Of a stretch of 49,145 nucleotides of DNA, positions 7,200-46,108 are shown one piece after another. A program made the translations under genes and the position numbers. The DNA is taken from contig JAFYUY010000027.1 in assembly GCA_017549405.1 (NCBI GenBank), positions 1 to 49,145 of the forward strand, in the 5' to 3' direction. Position 1 is the stretch's first letter. Each line of letters opens with the position of its first letter. The notes under the pieces were generated by a model. That model did not search any database. It saw nothing but the letters and a program-made list of their open reading frames with translations, and had not been told where the DNA came from. The DNA is from Clostridia bacterium. Lineage in GTDB: Bacteria > Bacillota > Clostridia > Oscillospirales > CAG-382.

Positions 7200-7805
7200 T
7201 TATTCTTCAAGATGCCCGCAAAACGGGTCTCCCTGCAAGAAGAAATTGCCGTCTGAAAAGTGTATTTCGGTTATTGATGTGTTTTTCATTGGTGTAATAT
7301 CAAGAACATTCTGACCGCGCCACATGGCAATAAGATTGCGGATTATACCGCCATGAGTACCCACTGCAATAGTTTTACCCTCGTTTTCAAGGGCAATTTC
7401 CCGAAGGGCATCAAGGGCACGGTAACGGATATTGCCGTAGCACTCGCCACCTCGGAAAGTATAATTTTCAGGATCGGCACGGTAAGTTGCGATCTCTTTC
7501 GGAAAATCCCTTTCGATATCGGAAACAAGGTTTCCGCTCCACACCCCCACATCCACCTCACGAAGGGCGGGGCAGGTTTTGATTTCAAGTCCCAGCTCCT
7601 TTGCCAGCGGCTCCACCGTGGCATAAGCTCTTATAAGGTCGGAAGAATACACCGCATCTATCTTAAAATTTTCCAGTATGTATTTAGTAACAGTCTGCGC
7701 CTGGCTGAGCCCTTTCTGTGTGAGAGGAGCATTTCCCTGCCCGCAAAAACGCTTTTCAAGGTTAGCAACGCTTTCACCGTGGCGGATAAGCAAAAATTTT
7801 ACCAT
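7200..7805 (-). CDS. histidine phosphatase (phosphoglycerate mutase-like) family protein
   Basis: LIRHGESVAN (RHG motif) and a later GTHGG motif. SD aaaggag. Overlaps the patatin gene's stop by 7 nt. Confidence 0.85.
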   Translation of the reverse strand: MVKFLLIRHGESVANLEKRFCGQGNAPLTQKGLSQAQTVTKYILENFKIDAVYSSDLIRAYATVEPLAKELGLEIKTCPALREVDVGVWSGNLVSDIERDFPKEIATYRADPENYTFRGGECYGNIRYRALDALREIALENEGKTIAVGTHGGIIRNLIAMWRGQNVLDITPMKNTSITEIHFSDGNFFLQGDPFCGHLEE

Positions 7806-38569: not shown

Positions 38570-38914
38570 TCAGATCCTTATTATTTTATAACTTTTTTTG
38601 CTGTCCCTGCATTTTATCAGGGTATCAAGAGTGCCGTTTGAATTCATGTCCCAAAAGGCATAAACCTCGTCGGCATATTCAACTATCTGCGTATTGCGCA
38701 AAAGGGCGGCACGTCTGCCGTATTTTTTGTAATCCGGCTGAAAGATCGTGAAAATAAGTCCCATTTCCTTAGCATATCTTTCGGCAAGAGTATCTATTCC
38801 TTTTGCCCCGCCGCTTACGATCTCCGTGCATTCCTTGGGAATATTTTCTTTTATAAGACGATAAGCCTTTTCCTCGTCGGGAATATTTCTTGAACCCACG
38901 ATCGCTATTTTCAA
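38570..38914 (-). CDS. SLOG-fold protein (DUF2493/YpsA-like, DprA-related Rossmannoid)
   Basis: KIAIVGSR...SGGAKGIDTLAERYA...YGRRAALLRNTQIVEYADEVYAFWDMNSNGT. A TTG at 38914 after GGAG is preferred; the track ATG is at 38956. Confidence 0.65.
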   Translation of the reverse strand: MKIAIVGSRNIPDEEKAYRLIKENIPKECTEIVSGGAKGIDTLAERYAKEMGLIFTIFQPDYKKYGRRAALLRNTQIVEYADEVYAFWDMNSNGTLDTLIKCRDSKKSYKIIRI

Positions 38915-39029
38915 AAAAATCACTCCATTTTTTATATTTTTTTCATCACATAACAAAATACACGACTGTACATATTAATACAGGTGCAACGCACCGCAAA
39001 TTTTGAGAAAGCTCAGGATTTTGGGAAAG

Positions 39030-40226
39030 ATGATAAGAAAAACAAAGCAAAAAACAAAATATCCGCGCATTGTTTATGCTCTTCCGATAATATCGCTGTG
39101 TGCCGTGATGTTTCTGGGAGGCGCACAGAAAGCCATTCCCGATGAGATAAACCTTGCAAATGCAGAAAGCTATGCACCGCAAACGGCATATACTCTGGCG
39201 GATCCGTCGGAAGAACAAAGCTCCCATAATATATATACCGCAAAACTCTTCGGAATACTTCCGACAAAATCGGTAAAAAGTAAATTTTTTTCGAACATTT
39301 ACCTTGTTCCGGGCGGAGATGTGTTCGGAGTGAAGTTTTTTACCGACGGAGTGGTGGTGACGGACCTTTCGGAAGTGGAGAGTGACGAGGGCATAATATG
39401 CCCCGCAAAAAAGGCGGGGCTCAAACCCGGAGATGTGGTTACATCCGTAAACGGGCATGAGCTTGCGTCATCGGAGGATCTCACAGAAATTTCCGAAAAA
39501 AGCGGGGGAAAGCAACTGTCCCTTGAATTTGAGCGGGACGGGAAAAAATACAAAGCAAATCTTTTGCCGGTGAGATCTTCATCCGACGGAATGTATAAAC
39601 TCGGAATGTGGGTGCGTGACAGCACGGCGGGAATAGGCACAGTGACCTTTTATGATCCGTCCGACGGCAGCTTTGCGGGACTTGGCCACGGAATATACGA
39701 CGCCGACACGGAGCTTCTTTTGCCGCTTCGGCGCGGAGCTGTGGTGGATATAGAGCTCGATGATATCGTGCGCGGAAGACAGGGGCATCCGGGGGAGCTA
39801 AAAGGCAGCTTCGGAACCGAAAAAACGGGAAGTATTCTGAAAAACACCCCTGCGGGAGTTTTTGGAATAATGGCATCGCCTCCGCAGACCATTTATGAAA
39901 AGACCGAGTGTGCCGCCCGCGAGGAAGTGACACTTGGGGATGCGGTGATACTTTCAAATGTTGACGGACGCGGTGTTAAGGAATATGCCGTGGAGATAAC
40001 GAAGATCTACTCGGGAAACGAAGAAACGAAAAATTTTGTGATCACCGTGCGTGACGAAAAGCTCATGGAGCTTACAGGCGGCATAGTGAGGGGGATGAGC
40101 GGTTCACCGATAATTCAGAACGGCAAGCTTGTGGGAGCAGTAACTCATGTTTTTGTGAATGATCCGACTCGTGGATATGGGATATTTATTGAAAATATGC
40201 TGGCGGAAGCGGAGAAAATCAAATAA
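39030..40226 (+). CDS. spoIVB: SpoIVB peptidase (S55), sporulation signalling protease
   Basis: PDZ segment AKKAGLKPGDVVTSVNG, GIGTVTFYDP..FAGLGHGI, and catalytic-Ser region [36 protein letters not shown]. Confidence 0.93.
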   Translation: MIRKTKQKTKYPRIVYALPIISLCAVMFLGGAQKAIPDEINLANAESYAPQTAYTLADPSEEQSSHNIYTAKLFGILPTKSVKSKFFSNIYLVPGGDVFGVKFFTDGVVVTDLSEVESDEGIICPAKKAGLKPGDVVTSVNGHELASSEDLTEISEKSGGKQLSLEFERDGKKYKANLLPVRSSSDGMYKLGMWVRDSTAGIGTVTFYDPSDGSFAGLGHGIYDADTELLLPLRRGAVVDIELDDIVRGRQGHPGELKGSFGTEKTGSILKNTPAGVFGIMASPPQTIYEKTECAAREEVTLGDAVILSNVDGRGVKEYAVEITKIYSGNEETKNFVITVRDEKLMELTGGIVRGMSGSPIIQNGKLVGAVTHVFVNDPTRGYGIFIENMLAEAEKIK

Positions 40227-40229
40227 ATT

Positions 40230-40262
40230 AAATGCTCGTCTGAACTTCAGGCGAGCATTTTA
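40230..40262 (+). terminator. spoIVB terminator
   Basis: aaatgctcgtctgaa / ttcaggcgagcattt followed by T residues. Confidence 0.7.
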
Positions 40263-40276
40263 GGTTAAAGGGTATA

Positions 40277-41149
40277 TTAAGTTTTCAAACCTTCACTTAT
40301 TTCGTATGTTTTGTTGATATTGCTTATACATCGGTCATAATGGATTGTAAGATATGCCATGAACAGAGAGTCCATCATGGCAAACTGACTTACACGGGAT
40401 GTGATGGCAATTTTGTGCAGAGGACTTTCTCTTGTTTGTGTAAGCAAAGTATAATCTGCTGTTTTGCAAATATTACTGTTACTGAAAGTTGTTACAGCAA
40501 TTGTGATAATACCCATTTTTTGTGCCATTTTCATTATTTTTTCTACAGTCTCATTGTTTCCCGAATGAGAAATGCCAAATACTACATCACCTTTTTTCAT
40601 ATTTGATAGAATGATTGCTGCCGAGGTGGATTCACAGGCACATTCTGTATCAATGCCTATTCGTTTGAATTTAATAGCTGCATCCTGACAAACTATATAG
40701 GATGTTCCCACACCAAAAAATGCGGTTTTTTCGGCATTATGCATAACTTGTACAATATCAGATAAGGTATCATATTCCATATTCTGTCGGGTTAGGTTTA
40801 AGCATTCTGCGCAGGATATAAGCATTTTTGAAATCTGAGCTTCAGGGGAGTTTTCGTTTTTATGAAAATCTAAAACGAAGTCTTCATGTTCATTTCCCAG
40901 TTGAGCGAGATGCAGTCTGAATTCTTTATATCCTTCAAACCCCATATGCTGCGCAAAACGAACGATGGTTGCAACGCTGATGTTAAGTTCCGATGCCAAC
41001 GCCTGCACACTAATGGAAAGCACATGTTCAAAATTGTTAATTATATAGTCTGCAATCGTTTTTTCGCTGTTTGTCATAGACGTATATTTTTCTGTAATAA
41101 ATTGAACAATATCTTTCTTCATAATAGTTTTTGTGGCCTTTCTGTTCAT
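40277..41149 (-). CDS. RpiR/MurR family transcriptional regulator (HTH plus SIS domain)
   Basis: SEKTIADYIINNFEHVLSISVQALASELNISVATIVRFAQHMGFEGYKEFR, then a SIS domain (FFGVGTSYIV...ISHSGNN). Confidence 0.88.
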   Translation of the reverse strand: MNRKATKTIMKKDIVQFITEKYTSMTNSEKTIADYIINNFEHVLSISVQALASELNISVATIVRFAQHMGFEGYKEFRLHLAQLGNEHEDFVLDFHKNENSPEAQISKMLISCAECLNLTRQNMEYDTLSDIVQVMHNAEKTAFFGVGTSYIVCQDAAIKFKRIGIDTECACESTSAAIILSNMKKGDVVFGISHSGNNETVEKIMKMAQKMGIITIAVTTFSNSNICKTADYTLLTQTRESPLHKIAITSRVSQFAMMDSLFMAYLTIHYDRCISNINKTYEISEGLKT

Positions 41150-41308
41150 TGAAAATTATTGTTGTAACTTTGTTACCATAATTTTACAATGTTTTTGCCT
41201 TTTTTTCAAGACTTTTTATTGAAAATCCTTGACATTTATAACACCGGTTTGTATAATTGTTACATAAAAAGAAAATGGTGTAATATTTGATCATGCGGAG
41301 GATTACAT

Positions 41309-43198
41309 ATGTCAATATTGATTATAAGTGATAATAAAAGTGATTTAAGCAATGTTCTAATGAGCTCAGCAAAATGCGAAATGCTCTCATTCAAAGAAGC
41401 TGAACAGGAGGATTTATCTGTCTATTCAGCTGTAGCTTTGCTTTGCGGTACAGAAAACACAAGACCTCGAGTGCTTTCAGCTAATCTTCGTATAAAGATT
41501 GAGGAATTTGCTGAAAGCGGCAAGCCAATTTTTTATGAATGGTGTGCAAGTTTTGGATATACTTTAACCAAGGGTGATGATTACAACGACGGCAGAGATT
41601 CTATGGGCGACGCTATGAACAGATATGTATATATCGGAAGCGACACCGAGAGGCTGACATATGGTGATTTGGTTGACAGTCAGGCAAATTTGGGATGCAA
41701 TTATATCCATATACCGGAAAATGCATATCCAATACTTTATAACGGCGGTCATGTTATCAGCCACGACCACATAGATTCTTCTGAAATAAAAACCAACGAA
41801 ATTGCTGCAAAGGACTGGCGTCTTTGGTATCATGACGAAAAGATACTTGTATGCTCATTTCGTATTTCAAATTTTGTAAAAGCAAGATTTGCACCGTTCG
41901 ATTCCTGGTGCGGAATTGTTGAAATCATTCTTAAACATTTGGGTGCAGAACAAATACAGATGCCCGCACCTTACTATACACTTGGCAGTAACTGCGATGC
42001 TCAGGGCACATTTAACAAAGGAATGGACTGGTTTGACGGATGCAATATTCTTATTGATAACGGAAAAGCGGGCGCAAAAGAGGGAATGTCTCATCCAATT
42101 ACCCCTGATGGCGTTCAGGCTGAAAGAAACAATGTTCGTGTTGACTGTGTGGGGGAGATAGCAGGTGCATATCTTTTTGATTATATTCTTAAGAATAACA
42201 CAGAATCACTTGCTGTTTATAAAAATCTTTCAGGTTTTATTTTTGATAAAATGCAGATTAAATCGGGAAAATTTGCGGGAATGCTTCGTTGGACAGAAAG
42301 TGCGTGGTGTACTGTTTATGGAGATGATACCGGCAGAGCTGTTATCAGTACTTTGTTTTATATGATGTATACCAAAGATATGCGCAAAATGACTCAGGTT
42401 GAAGCAGCTCTTGATTTTCTTATCGGTATAACCGGTACTGACGGGCTTATGGAACATGGTGTTCATGTAAGCGAGCTTACAGATGAAAATATAAAACAAA
42501 TGCACTCTAATCCTTCTAATCAATACTGTGCACACAGAAATGCTTATTACAGCGCCGCACTTCTTCTTGCATATCAGCTGAACCACAAAGAGATATATAA
42601 AGATATTGCGGTAAAAGGCTTATCGACCATTATGGGAGTATATCCTGAAACTATGCGTGCAATCAGCGAAACAGAAGAATTATGCAGACTTATTTTTCCG
42701 CTTTCGTGCCTTTATCAGGTAACGAGAGATGAGACACACAAAAAATGGCTATATGATGTCTGTGAACGTCTTGAAAATTATAGGCACAAAAGCGGTGGTT
42801 TTGTCGAGGTTGACCCGGGTTATACAGCTTACCGAAGCAGAACAGAGGGTACGGAATCATCTATGCTTGCAGAAAACGGGAATGAAATAGCAGAACTGCT
42901 TTATTCCCTGAACTGGTTGCCTTTAGGATTTTCTTATGCCTATTATGTAACAGGTGACAAGGTTTTTCTTGAAAAATGGGAAAAGATCGTAAAATTCATG
43001 TCCGATGCGCAAATTGTAAGCGACGATAAAACAATTGACGGTGCATGGGCAAGAAGTCTTGACTTAAAACGTATGGAAATATATGGTATGCCTCATGATG
43101 TTGGTTGGGGACCCTGTTGTATTGAAAGTGGATGGACTGTGGGTGAAATTCTTATGGGCCTTGGTTTTGGTATTGCTTTGAAAAAAGGACTATTCTAA
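41309..43198 (+). CDS. uncharacterised 629-aa cytoplasmic protein; C-terminal half looks like an alpha/alpha-toroid (glycoside hydrolase/lyase-like) fold
   Basis: SD GGAGG. No signal peptide. No motif confidently recognised. Repeated aromatic/helical segments (YYSAALLLAY, LNWLPLGFSYAYYVTGD, GWGPCCIESGWTVGEIL). Confidence 0.6.
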   Translation: MSILIISDNKSDLSNVLMSSAKCEMLSFKEAEQEDLSVYSAVALLCGTENTRPRVLSANLRIKIEEFAESGKPIFYEWCASFGYTLTKGDDYNDGRDSMGDAMNRYVYIGSDTERLTYGDLVDSQANLGCNYIHIPENAYPILYNGGHVISHDHIDSSEIKTNEIAAKDWRLWYHDEKILVCSFRISNFVKARFAPFDSWCGIVEIILKHLGAEQIQMPAPYYTLGSNCDAQGTFNKGMDWFDGCNILIDNGKAGAKEGMSHPITPDGVQAERNNVRVDCVGEIAGAYLFDYILKNNTESLAVYKNLSGFIFDKMQIKSGKFAGMLRWTESAWCTVYGDDTGRAVISTLFYMMYTKDMRKMTQVEAALDFLIGITGTDGLMEHGVHVSELTDENIKQMHSNPSNQYCAHRNAYYSAALLLAYQLNHKEIYKDIAVKGLSTIMGVYPETMRAISETEELCRLIFPLSCLYQVTRDETHKKWLYDVCERLENYRHKSGGFVEVDPGYTAYRSRTEGTESSMLAENGNEIAELLYSLNWLPLGFSYAYYVTGDKVFLEKWEKIVKFMSDAQIVSDDKTIDGAWARSLDLKRMEIYGMPHDVGWGPCCIESGWTVGEILMGLGFGIALKKGLF

Positions 43199-43210
43199 GA
43201 AAGGGAAAAT

Positions 43211-44143
43211 ATGAAAAATTTACTTGTTGCTGATATTGGAGGTACAAATACACGACTTCGAATAACAGATATAAATGGAAATATATTGTGGGAGTCTGTT
43301 ACAGCCGGAGTTGCGGCGGCAACGGACAGTAACGCTCCGCTTGTTTCACTGGAAAAGCAGCTTGATGAAATGCCCGGCAAAGAAAATATCGGTGCTATAT
43401 CTATAAATCTCGGCGGGAAAAACACGGTGCAGGTTAAGCTTTGCTTTTGCAGTTTTTTTCCTGATGTGCCATTAAAAATATTCCGTGAATCAGAGGGCGC
43501 TGCCGCATACGCTCTGGGAGAAGAATATGATGCTCCAATTGTCCTTATGGCAGGAACAGGCGCAATTGCGGTAGGAAAATCAGATAATGGTTTTGTAATT
43601 ACAGGCGGATGGGGAATCAACATAGGAGACGATGGAAGTGGCTATGATATCGGACTTCAGGCAATCCGCATGAGTTTAACGGCACTTGACAATACTGAAG
43701 ATTTATCACCTCTTACAAGGTTTTTGTGCGGTTTGGAAAAGTCACTTTCTGCAACCGATGATCCAACAGTTTACAGAGACAAAAGAGACCGCGTTAGAGA
43801 ACATTTGTCACCATTTGACAGAAAAAATATCGCATCTCTTTCCAAAACAGTTGCCAAATTCGCAGAAAAGGGCGATAAAACAGCACTTGATATATTCAGG
43901 TATTCAGGTGAGAAGCTTTCGGAATTGGTTATATGTACTGCAAAAAAACTTACAGGTGAAATCCCTAATATTGTTGTGACGGGAGGACTTATTCATTCCC
44001 GCAAATTTTGGGCACCGAGTTTTGAAAATTCTATACTTAAGATCATTCCCGATGTTAAAATACACTATGTTCCGAGCGGACTTCTCAGAGGAACTTTTAA
44101 AATTGCCAAAGATTTATATGAGGAGGCAAAAGAAAATGATTGA
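43211..44143 (+). CDS. BadF/BadG/BcrA/BcrD-type ATPase, N-acetylhexosamine (GlcNAc/MurNAc) kinase-like
   Basis: LVADIGGTNTRL phosphate-1 motif, MAGTGAIAVG, GGWGINIGDDGSGYDIG. Confidence 0.75.
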   Translation: MKNLLVADIGGTNTRLRITDINGNILWESVTAGVAAATDSNAPLVSLEKQLDEMPGKENIGAISINLGGKNTVQVKLCFCSFFPDVPLKIFRESEGAAAYALGEEYDAPIVLMAGTGAIAVGKSDNGFVITGGWGINIGDDGSGYDIGLQAIRMSLTALDNTEDLSPLTRFLCGLEKSLSATDDPTVYRDKRDRVREHLSPFDRKNIASLSKTVAKFAEKGDKTALDIFRYSGEKLSELVICTAKKLTGEIPNIVVTGGLIHSRKFWAPSFENSILKIIPDVKIHYVPSGLLRGTFKIAKDLYEEAKEND

Positions 44144-45650
44144 CTTTCCAACAGGATTAATAGTGTCTGCGCAGGCACTCGACGGGAACCCCTTCCGCAA
44201 TTCTCAGGCACTTGCGCTTATGGCAGAATCTGCCGCTATCGGAGGTGCTTCGGCAATCCGTGCCAATGGTGCCGATGATATTTCTGCTATGAGTAAGCGT
44301 GTTTCTATTCCGATTATAGGTATTGATAAGAAGAAAGACCCAACAGGACGAACAGTAATTACCCCTGATTTTGAAGGGGCGAAAAAAATTTATGAGGCAG
44401 GTGCAAGCATTATCGCACTTGACGCAACCTTTTACCCAAGCGATATTGCGGAAGACCGCAAGGAATTGATCCGTCGTATTCACGAAGAATTAGGTATACC
44501 TGTTATGGCAGATATTTCAACATTTGAAGAAGCTGTCAATGCTGCAAAGATGGGCGTGGATGCAATATCCACTACACTGGCAGGATATATTCCCGGTGCA
44601 CTACATACCGATGACGAACTGTATGTACCTGATTTTACGTTGTTATCCCAAATTGTTGCAGCCAAACTCCCGTGTAAAGTTGTGGCAGAAGGAAGAATAT
44701 GGGGACGGGAGGATATAAGAGAAGCGTTTAATATTGGTGCAGATGCTGTTGTTATAGGAAAGGCTATTACAAATCCCATAGCAATCACGCGTTATTATAA
44801 CAGCTTTATACCAAAGAAAGATGAGTCCGGTTACGTTCCTACCGAAACACGGAACCCACGTTCGGATAATATGGCAGATGGCCCAAGCGAGTCAATTTTG
44901 CGGATAATTCAAAGAGAGGATGCAACTGTTCCTGCGATTGTAAAGAGCTGTATACCGCAGATTGCAAAATTGGTTGATGCAGGAGTTGAATCTCTTAAAA
45001 AGGGTGGACGCATTATATACTGCGGTGCAGGCACAAGCGGTCGTCTTGCAGTTGCAGATGCGGCGGAATGCCCTCCGACATATGGTGTTTCAAGAGAAAC
45101 AATAACAGCTGTAATTGCAGGAGGAGAAAAAGCCATCACTAACGCATCTGAAGGTTGTGAGGACAATCGAGAAGCAGGTATTGCAGCTTTTGAAAATCTA
45201 AAATGTACTGAAAACGATTTAATTATCGGAATATCTGCTGCAGGGCGTGCTCCATTTGTAGTTGCATTTATGGAAAAAGCCGGGGAGCGTGGCTGTAAAG
45301 TGGGAGCAATCGTCAACAATCTTGATACAGAAATGTCGAAATTATCTGATATTACAATAGAAGCGTTGACAGGTGCCGAAGTTATCAAAGGCTCTACCCG
45401 AATGAAGGCGGGAAGTGCCCAAAAAATGATACTGAATATGTTTTCAACCGCTGTTTTTGTTAAGATGGGCTATACATGGCAAAATTATATGACCCATATG
45501 AAACCCTCAAACAGTAAACTAAAGAAAAGAGCGGTGGCTATGATTTGCGAAATACTGAAGATAAAGAAAGATAAAGCCGAGGAGCTTTTGGTTTCTCATG
45601 ATTGGGATATACATACCTCTTTGGTCAGCCACAAGAATAACAACAAATAA
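44136..45650 (+). CDS. fusion protein: ManNAc-6-P 2-epimerase (NanE) plus MurNAc-6-P etherase (MurQ)
   Basis: ATG at 44136 after gaggagg, overlapping the kinase stop by 8 nt. NanE part: LIVSAQALDGNPF...AIRANG...VVAEGRI...AVVIGKAIT. MurQ part: TETRNPRS...GGRIIYCGAGTSGRLAVADAAECPPTYGV...GSTRMKAGSAQKMILNM. Confidence 0.85.
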   Translation: MIDFPTGLIVSAQALDGNPFRNSQALALMAESAAIGGASAIRANGADDISAMSKRVSIPIIGIDKKKDPTGRTVITPDFEGAKKIYEAGASIIALDATFYPSDIAEDRKELIRRIHEELGIPVMADISTFEEAVNAAKMGVDAISTTLAGYIPGALHTDDELYVPDFTLLSQIVAAKLPCKVVAEGRIWGREDIREAFNIGADAVVIGKAITNPIAITRYYNSFIPKKDESGYVPTETRNPRSDNMADGPSESILRIIQREDATVPAIVKSCIPQIAKLVDAGVESLKKGGRIIYCGAGTSGRLAVADAAECPPTYGVSRETITAVIAGGEKAITNASEGCEDNREAGIAAFENLKCTENDLIIGISAAGRAPFVVAFMEKAGERGCKVGAIVNNLDTEMSKLSDITIEALTGAEVIKGSTRMKAGSAQKMILNMFSTAVFVKMGYTWQNYMTHMKPSNSKLKKRAVAMICEILKIKKDKAEELLVSHDWDIHTSLVSHKNNNK

Positions 45651-45695
45651 TTTAACATAACTTTTAGAAATGTTGGCCCCTATTGACAACAGTGG

Positions 45696-45826
45696 TGAGC
45701 GGTTCACCGATAATTCAGAACGGCAAGCTTGTGGGCGCAGTTACTCACGTTTTTGTGAACGATCCAACTCGTGGGTATGGGATATTTATTGAAAATATGC
45801 TGGCGGAAGCTGAAAGAATTAAATAG
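45696..45826 (+). pseudogene. displaced 3' fragment of spoIVB (last 43 codons plus stop)
   Basis: 120 of 131 nt are identical to 40096-40226. Would encode [42 protein letters not shown]. No upstream ORF is joined to it. Followed by its own terminator-like hairpin at 45828-45866. Confidence 0.85.
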
Positions 45827-46108
45827 CAAAAATGCTCACTTATACCGGATATAGGTGAGCATTTTGTTTATTCATTTTCGCATATTCGTCTAAAGTGTAG
45901 TTGTTTTGATATCCCTTGTTCATTTTTTGAATAACAAAAGAAAGTGACAGACAGCAAAGGAGCGAAAATTCTCTTTCGGGTTGTCAGAGGAGAACGGACA
46001 AACCTTGATGACAAATATCATACGGCATTTATTGCCGAAACACCAGCTATAGGGTATGTTGTTTATAAGTTTTTTACCGAAAAAGAAGAAGTCAATATGA
46101 TTGAACTT

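Follow-up and report, generated by a model that had tools for sequence, protein, structure and literature searches.

Downstream of the sporulation gene spoIVB, the genome of a Clostridia bacterium (Oscillospirales, CAG-382) carries a 5.4-kb four-gene cassette that is followed by a second copy of the gene's own 3' end. The arrangement lies on contig JAFYUY010000027.1 of assembly GCA_017549405.1, all 49,145 nucleotides of which were analysed and are called the window here. Its best explanation, to which we give a probability of about 0.75, is that a cargo module without a recombinase of its own occupies a serine-recombinase attachment site inside the spoIVB 3' end. The two 131-bp copies of that end would be the attL-like and attR-like junctions of a site at the Met codon before the catalytic-serine motif SGSP, and the site would belong to a widespread family of integrative elements of gut Clostridia whose right end encodes three large serine recombinases (LSRs) in tandem. 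Since the crossover would fall 43 codons before the stop, an insert would have to bring a substitute 3' end and terminator, and the previous end would be pushed downstream as an orphan, now behind the element's half-site motif.

The duplicated spoIVB end and its junction motif

A repeat search of the window found a single repeat, a direct one of 142 nt (40096-40237 versus 45696-45837; 90% identity, spacing 5600). It contains the last 43 codons and the stop of spoIVB, present at 40096-40226 within the intact gene (copy c0) and again at 45696-45826 as the orphan (copy c1), with 11 of 131 positions unlike. Counted from the Met/Val codon, the differences fall at offsets 41, 47, 53, 65, 71, 80, 116, 119, 121, 125 and 131; nine are synonymous third-position changes, one is an AAA/AGA (Lys/Arg) exchange and one sets TAA against TAG. 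A Nei-Gojobori count between the copies gives 9 synonymous changes versus 1 non-synonymous, and so few non-synonymous changes would have a probability of P ~0.001 if the end had been duplicated in situ and the orphan had then drifted neutrally. This bias argues that both copies diverged as functional gene ends, a conclusion that stands as it was drawn in the preliminary description of the window, which was made from the letters alone and had already given the spacing and the make-up of the differences. Codon comparison likewise shows displaced ends to have been under purifying selection until recently, nearly all differences being synonymous in most arrays as well. The hairpins after both copies have a common AAATGCTC...GAGCATTTT stem and unlike loops, again as first described. 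Along the repeat, the first 40 nt right of the junction are identical in c0 and c1, and 6 of the first 81 positions differ.

Independent assemblies of the same organism (L081-L085) have the same structure at 99.9-100% identity, so the duplication is not an assembly artefact; the strain is present in samples ERZ27256879, ERZ28018753 and ERZ28653778. The gene itself is uninterrupted after the insertion, with Peptidase_S55 matched over its full length, and its exact 398-aa product is called on six contigs. The orphan might have been part of a larger second spoIVB paralogue, as the preliminary description had allowed; no spoIVB-like sequence was found upstream of it, where the last cargo gene, NanE-MurQ, stops at 45650.

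What that description had missed is a conserved non-coding motif before the orphan, and this motif is the key to the mechanism. A stretch of 23-30 nt with the consensus TGTTGTCCCTAT-TTGACA-CACTC after an A-rich run lies directly 5' of every orphan and is unrelated to the spoIVB sequence at the equivalent place of the intact gene. In the window its core begins 22 nt past the NanE-MurQ stop. Lineages whose SpoIVB proteins share no more than 45-65% identity have kept this motif, which implies a sequence-specific function. The breakpoint is fixed as well: the orphan starts at the Met/Val codon preceding SGSP, at 45695 in the window and at the same place in 19 aligned junctions and 73 recombinase-linked loci. 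This codon, the Met of G-M-S-G-S-P, has usually turned into GTG or CTG, and the sole exception to the rule is a 5'-truncated orphan (L037 5243-5329). The junction sequences would place the crossover at or just right of the TG in the Met/Val codon, and only that closely. A recombinase crossover in the block that encodes GYGIFIENM was rejected, because the orphan's first 81 nt differ between the window and the related locus L111 (see below) and because two element contigs, L095 and L098, part at offset 3. A role of the motif as a sigma-70 promoter, considered for its TTGACA, was rejected too, as it has no properly spaced -10 and the promoter scan lists none there.

In other loci the motif occurs in inverted pairs that form near-palindromes of ~49 bp (L054 11027-11075, L069 10967-11015, L065 11005-11053, L021 3227-3271). 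They sit ~30 nt past the stop codon of a spoIVB copy, with a T-run after them, and a third, direct motif copy stands 38 nt on (L054, L021) or 1.9 kb on with two open reading frames (ORFs) between (L069 12942-12962). These near-palindromes could be symmetric att-like sites or mere terminators.

Features of the spoIVB locus in the window, with positions and strands
Feature	Position	Strand	Remarks
Intact spoIVB, insertion target	39030..40226	+	398 aa; alternative TTG start at 39003; PDZ and Peptidase_S55 (positions 2-210 of 210; Pfam)
Copy c0 (attL-like)	40095..40237	+	Met codon of G-M-S-G-S-P, last 43 codons, stop, first terminator bases
Hairpin/terminator after c0 (AAATGCTCGTCTGAACTTCAGGCGAGCATTTT)	40230..40261	+	Same loop in L001 and L111
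MurR/RpiR-family regulator	40277..41149	-	HTH_6 and SIS (Pfam, NCBIfam)
629-aa protein, no Pfam/NCBIfam family	41309..43198	+	Homologues in the same four-gene module of other Clostridia
BadF/BadG/BcrA/BcrD-type sugar kinase, weakly NagK-like	43211..44143	+	Pfam, NCBIfam
NanE (ManNAc-6-P 2-epimerase) and MurQ (MurNAc-6-P etherase) fusion	44118..45650	+	Pfam, NCBIfam
Junction motif, putative element-side half-site of attR-type junction	45665..45694	+	Core GTTGGCCCCTATTGACAACAGTG at 45672-45694, A-rich run before it
Copy c1, orphan (putative B'-side of attR-like junction)	45695..45837	+	GTG for ATG, 43 codons, TAG, terminator start
Intrinsic-terminator-like hairpin after orphan	45829..45865	+	Resembles terminators of intact spoIVB in L001 and L089

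Elements with three serine recombinases and cassettes in other species

Searches with the C-terminal peptide covered spoIVB loci from 84 species-level genomes and metagenomes. On viral contigs L092-L098 and L101 the motif and an orphan lie ~40 nt past three tandem ORFs of ~550, 568 and 535 aa, which carry the Pfam domains Resolvase, Recombinase and Zn_ribbon_recom, and the first two have DUF4368 in addition. When metagenomes were scanned with an alignment of LSR3, the recombinase nearest the junction, 80 loci emerged, and in 73 of them a spoIVB fragment from the same codon lies within ~40-600 nt of the LSR3 stop. Taking viral and metagenomic loci together (about 80), the junction comes 40-120 nt past the triplet. 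Contigs L095 and L098 have 0 mismatches in 6,583 nt through the motif and the GTG, and then 23 mismatches in 74 positions from offset 3; judged by their sequences, they are the same element attached to two different spoIVB ends, and the break falls at the junction. Comparison across these contigs shows the junction type of the window to be the attachment-site junction of the triplet-LSR element family.

A position weight matrix trained solely on 33 distinct recombinase-linked junctions bears on the same point. It ranks 45665-45694 first among the 98,230 positions of the window at 16.8 bits (runner-up 8.2; background -48 +/- 13), a score below the training minimum of 21.6 bits, so that by this sequence measure the window junction is a diverged member of the triplet-element attachment-site class. 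For 15 of 16 junctions without a recombinase, the same matrix gives the 30-mer next to the orphan first or second place.

Several supposed carriers of the site were rejected. The 'Bacteriophage sp.' matches in GenBank, considered as free phages, are mostly bacterial contigs with an ordinary spoIVB; the plasmid matches are annotated spoIVB genes on large replicons; and L091 is an ordinary spoIVB-spo0A locus beside a prophage. Among the contigs no circular junction of the cassette was seen, and a search for backbone genes of triplet elements past the spoIVB genes of genomic loci gave only weak HTH matches. An IMG/VR contig (L099 1-5300) shows that this part of spoIVB has a second, separate insertion point: the 3' end there is broken elsewhere, after ...HVLIN, by phage-like DNA with two other serine-recombinase-like genes on the opposite strand. 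On L095 (6843-7868) an LSR2-like ORF, 45% identical to LSR2, lies ~140 nt past the orphan and its terminator and may be a second element in tandem.

Cassettes without recombinases end at the same junction in many other species. Beyond the intact gene, further pieces of the spoIVB 3' end occur in arrays of up to 3 copies in L001, L010, L021, L037, L054, L061, L069, L071, L075, L088 and L089 and, found later, in L111 and L112/L113, which brings the total to at least 13 other species. The cargo between gene and orphan varies by species: GH32; AraC with GH2; AraC with SDR and an FAD oxidoreductase; a sialidase with a NanA-like lyase and AraC; a KDG-kinase-like gene with an aldolase and AraC; XRE/TPR regulators; and AAA ATPases. 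More than 15 different cassettes of 0.1-5.5 kb each end in the motif right after the last cargo gene, the interval from gene to orphan in L021 being 122 bp and almost empty, and no recombinase was found in any gene-to-orphan cassette of the orphan-bearing loci. Two cassettes stand in tandem, with two orphans, in L037, L089 and L111, at least two in L001 and at least three in L112/L113.

Some of these orphans are decaying: the truncated one in L037 starts at residue 16, one in L112 (3214-3342) has an internal stop and another there (7260-7319) ends after 20 codons. By the look of such sequences, old junctions erode once displaced. The long run of L112/L113 (1-21899) holds a glycyl-radical enzyme with its activase, SDR, the RpiR module, an M20 peptidase, GH32 and PfkB modules, and recognisable motif-plus-orphan units lie between the first modules only, which suggests an old, partly eroded array.

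Of 38 related loci that extend at least 9 kb downstream, 33 have a single spoIVB copy, so the unoccupied state is the norm and the duplication an insertion state, not the ancestral one. The preliminary description had held that identical copies shared by all relatives would speak for an old internal duplication; most relatives have one copy, and the two in the window are non-identical. Within the species itself no empty site was found, as 5 of 5 contigs with an identical SpoIVB carry the cassette at 99.9-100% identity and the next SpoIVB is 70% identical.

Transfer of the cassette and how it may move

A homologue with 98% identity to the 629-aa protein of the cassette is encoded on an NCBI contig (locus L111, assembly GCA_054269915.1). 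The order there is rpoC-rpoB-SLOG gene-spoIVB, the same four-gene cassette, motif and orphan, a GH28/LacI cassette, and motif with a second orphan. Between the window and L111 the body of spoIVB is 61% identical and the cassette (40230-45690) 97.9%, and the cassette is therefore horizontally mobile. No mismatch occurs over 45300-45675 (50-nt windows from 45300; site list from 45500); identity collapses past 45694, and the right end of the shared segment is the end of the motif. In L001, whose SpoIVB is 65% identical, the same terminator and the end of the RpiR gene follow the second copy, behind a GH32 cassette, and an 82% version of the four-gene module lies in the long array of L112-L115. 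Sequence identity at these loci shows that the cassette was acquired horizontally and moved recently between gut species.

Which of the two ends is native? The terminator after c0 is linked to the cassette in three species, whereas the tail and terminator of the orphan (GCTGAAAGAATTAAATAG CAAAAATGCTC...) match the end of the intact gene in L089, with 32 nt identical, and resemble those of L001. Taken together, the tails and terminators indicate that the orphan is probably the displaced resident end, which answers a question that the preliminary description had raised. The terminator loop after c0 and everything downstream of it clearly co-transfer with the cassette, and the imported part of the working gene comprises at least the terminator and probably the last <=15 codons. 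The earlier idea of an element that enters the 3' end of spoIVB is thus borne out by the triplet-LSR junction and the mobile cassette; the replacement end that it was thought to supply is confirmed for the terminator and probably for those codons, and not for the first ~81 nt of the repeat.

How would such a cassette move? It would be moved, now or formerly, by a triplet recombinase in trans, like the ccr-less modules of staphylococcal cassette chromosome (SCC) islands, and the triplet LSRs are a strong candidate family for the missing enzyme. In addition, the repeated 3' ends would recombine homologously or undergo gene conversion, which would reshuffle cassettes and homogenise the first ~80 nt within a genome. 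Either a recombinase in trans or homologous recombination between repeats could account for the cassette's movement. An end brought in by an element would have to encode the conserved peptide of the resident end. With the first 40 nt identical in both copies, an occupied gene would still pass for an empty target and the orphan junction for an element site, which would explain tandem accretion. A typical serine-integrase site measures 40-50 bp (PMC3783163). Sites that cannot be told apart raise the question of how directionality is controlled. The choice of spoIVB as target would be understandable too: in Bacillus, spoIVB acts from the forespore, and an element that split the gene and needed excision would be lost from the germ line, so that only gene-preserving insertions would persist.

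Several results weigh against a cycle driven by a recombinase alone. In such a cycle a circle made up of the motif, the 131-bp end and the cargo would integrate at the Met codon, and all 131 bp of c0 should accompany the cassette. Its first ~81 nt do not: they are lineage-specific, as diverged from L111 or L001 as the body of spoIVB, and divergence from L111 falls sharply only at ~40176-40193. On its left side the segment in common with L111 accordingly has its boundary at ~40176-40230 and not at 40095-40097. Across the clade the tail of the repeat is about 2x as conserved as its first part, so this boundary is only bracketed by those two positions. The array of L001 does not fit a simple rule by which the newest cassette inserts at the gene, to judge from its order: the recently shared cassette stands behind a GH32 cassette, and the GH32 gene, motif and orphan of the latter are orthologues of those in L089 at core-like divergence (69%). 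At the junction, neither dyad symmetry nor a crossover dinucleotide rose above chance. Nor was a recombinase seen together with the cassette: serine recombinase queries gave zero tblastn matches in the whole window, no recombinase triplet was found within 10 kb flanking any cassette array, and no locus was found with a triplet and several orphans. The cassette arrays suggest that triplet elements bring their own replacement end, yet their left end (attL) was never reached. No intact spoIVB was found upstream of triplets, either in IMGVR_UViG_2563367179_000007, which was walked to its end, or in the 10 kb upstream of the 80 LSR3 loci, and it follows that the triplet elements exceed 10 kb or that the prophage predictions were trimmed.

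Could homologous recombination have done all the recent work? An old serine-recombinase event would then have made the first motif-plus-orphan unit, and the cassette would have reached the window genome, L111 and L001 by RecA-type recombination, with the left crossover in the GYGIFIENM-coding block, the right one in the motif, and no recombinase acting on the cassette today. We regard this as quite possible though on balance doubtful. It accommodates the left boundary, which falls at repeat offset ~81-130 in two comparisons and not at the junction codon, the internal array position of the recent cassette in L001, and the fact that no array has a recombinase near it. It also fits the mosaic copies, whose first 84 nt are homogenised within genomes: beside the 6/81 of the window, c1 and c2 of L089 differ at 2/81 positions in the first part, yet their motifs and tails are unlike. 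However, homologous recombination needs no 23-nt non-coding motif of the kind that has been kept across such distant SpoIVB lineages, and the right boundary coincides exactly with the recombinase junction. Moreover, uninterrupted identity between donor and recipient amounts to only ~17-23 nt per crossover, far less than RecA would need to recombine efficiently between species whose flanks are 61% identical. The left boundary, the homogenised first 84 nt and the array order of L001 together argue that homologous recombination or gene conversion contributes; the boundary in particular favours a role in shuffling cassettes, and this may have been the route of the last transfer.

The remaining explanations fare less well beside a recombinase-less module in a serine-recombinase site. 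An autonomous triplet element that had lost its backbone and recombinase genes in situ, and so become immobile, would be in keeping with the size of triplet elements (>10 kb with accessory genes), with the decaying orphans of L112 and L037 and with the frequency of decayed integrative and conjugative elements (ICEs) in streptococci (PMC4701971). It is nonetheless improbable, since the same compact four-gene cassette recurs with the same ends and 98% identity in two or more further species and must have spread in compact form, and since the >15 cassettes that end at the motif without recombinase remnants would each have needed a precise deletion. A partial duplication of the spoIVB 3' end in situ, or the remnant of a second paralogue with ordinary neighbours in between, can be set aside with near certainty. 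Slippage or unequal crossing-over can make direct repeats, and the copies are 90% identical, but the 9:1 synonymous ratio rejects a neutrally drifting orphan, nothing resembling spoIVB precedes it, the orphan starts at one and the same codon in 14 or more species and ~80 recombinase-linked loci and is preceded by the one foreign motif every time, and cargo is species-specific while most relatives are single-copy; a duplication in situ is refuted by the ratio, the fixed junction with its motif, the varying cargo and the single-copy relatives. Scarcely more credible is an integron-like or tyrosine-recombinase system with the repeats as attC or att sites. Small cassettes in tandem, each followed by a repeated ~190-bp unit with a hairpin, do recall one, but no tyrosine recombinase lies in or next to any array, and serine recombinases are the only ones physically linked to the junction. 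The cassettes have regulators and promoters of their own, unlike integron cassettes, and the repeat is coding sequence, not an imperfect palindrome of the attC type.

A bolder extension, tentative and on the unlikely side, is that the spoIVB 3' end serves as an integron-like cassette platform that triplets of serine recombinases act upon in trans. If so, metabolic cassettes that have no recombinase of their own could be captured and stacked, and also excised and passed from species to species, perhaps even with no directionality factor. Cassette arrays would then have evolved independently a second time, built on serine and not tyrosine recombination and on coding sequence instead of attC hairpins.

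Cargo, comparable systems and significance

By their domain matches, the four genes of the cassette probably form a unit for amino-sugar catabolism. Pfam and NCBIfam found no recombinase, transposase or relaxase domain in the four genes between the copies, in agreement with the preliminary description, and a perfect sigma-70-like promoter lies inside the cassette at 41229-41257. The 629-aa protein has >160 homologues at E <= 1e-30, with identity down to 37% among 120 listed. It adjoins an RpiR regulator in the four contexts inspected (the window, L001, L111 and L112-L115) and, in the same contexts, stands beside the kinase and NanE-MurQ genes wherever downstream sequence exists; this company makes it a candidate for a novel enzyme of amino-sugar catabolism.

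On the other side of spoIVB, upstream and divergent from it, lies a small YAcAr/SLOG, DprA-like gene (38570-38956, minus strand), which is syntenic in the window, L001, L088, L089 and L111. In contrast to L091 and L100, spo0A does not follow spoIVB in the window, where the gene may be a paralogue or the locus rearranged. The window ends 3.3 kb past the orphan with one module visible. The identical contig L081 (20116-20127) stops 11 nt past the window's last base, 49145, inside an ORF of >700 aa; the shared assembly break is possibly due to a repeat, and more cassettes or orphans could lie beyond it.

The closest analogues, although the spoIVB site is not a member of their class, are the composite SCC islands of staphylococci, in which SCCmec stands with the ccr-less ACME, COMER and psiSCC at rlmH/orfX. 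In both, an LSR site lies in the 3' end of a conserved chromosomal gene that is kept intact, direct repeats flank the inserts, the site is regenerated and modules stack in tandem. The SCC repeats measure ~15-30 bp, whereas the replaced end of spoIVB amounts to 43 codons (131 bp), and the spoIVB cargo serves carbohydrate catabolism, not resistance. The enzymes differ as well, a triplet of TnpX/TndX-like proteins with DUF4368 in place of CcrAB or CcrC, as do the hosts (Oscillospiraceae and other Clostridia) and the target, spoIVB at its catalytic-serine codon instead of rlmH. Both systems have cargo-only modules without recombinase genes between repeats, and those of SCC are mobilised by recombinases encoded elsewhere (PMC7029739). 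ACME, for one, has direct repeats at attB, is mobilised by the ccrAB of SCCmec and forms composite islands (PMC7029739). At the spoIVB site, mobilisation in trans would be the counterpart by analogy, while horizontal spread of the compact module is observed.

Other systems share single traits with the spoIVB site. Streptococcal ICEs with serine-integrase triplets disrupt mutT, traG and hsdM and leave repeats of 2-8 bp (PMC4701971). By description, they are alike in having three tandem recombinase genes (Resolvase, Recombinase and Zn ribbon) at one end, in one orientation relative to the target, and in integrating site-specifically inside a protein-coding gene. Unlike their targets, spoIVB is kept intact by the 131-bp replacement end, and its site is held by recombinase-less cassettes and arrays. 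The cis-mobilizable elements (CIMEs) that accrete with ICEs at the fda 3' end of Streptococcus thermophilus are att-flanked islands without integrase or conjugation genes, which would be mobilised once they have accreted with a complete element. As at spoIVB, the flanking att sites stem from an integrative element whose integrase is missing; the fda site uses a tyrosine integrase and short att repeats, and CIMEs are not known to form multi-cassette arrays of metabolic operons. In endospore formers LSR elements already target sporulation genes, skin in sigK and SPbeta in spsM, but these split mother-cell genes and must excise to restore them, whereas spoIVB is never interrupted. Integrons likewise have tandem cassettes and a repeated recombination-site unit beside a fixed platform, with cargo shuffled between species. 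The spoIVB arrays have no IntI and no attC structure; their cassettes carry their own promoters and regulators, often with several genes, and the repeat is a functional coding end. Full-text searches for spoIVB in combination with serine recombinase, attB or integration found no paper, and an island of Clostridioides difficile described with three serine recombinases proved unrelated.

These observations point to a hotspot of insertion, apparently not described before, in a sporulation gene that is conserved and is used in this way in many uncultured gut and rumen Clostridia. For the recombinases, the ~70 natural junctions of triplets form a data set on site recognition by multi-subunit serine integrases, and the cassette arrays suggest that triplets can preserve their target through a 43-codon replacement end, in contrast to published triplets, which disrupt theirs. 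The logic of SCC composite islands would extend beyond staphylococci to a new host group and a new target gene. In metagenome-assembled genomes, the motif-plus-orphan signature offers a simple marker of horizontally acquired metabolic cassettes. For the hosts, the site is a place where carbohydrate-utilisation operons are stacked and exchanged between species whose core genes are only ~60% identical.

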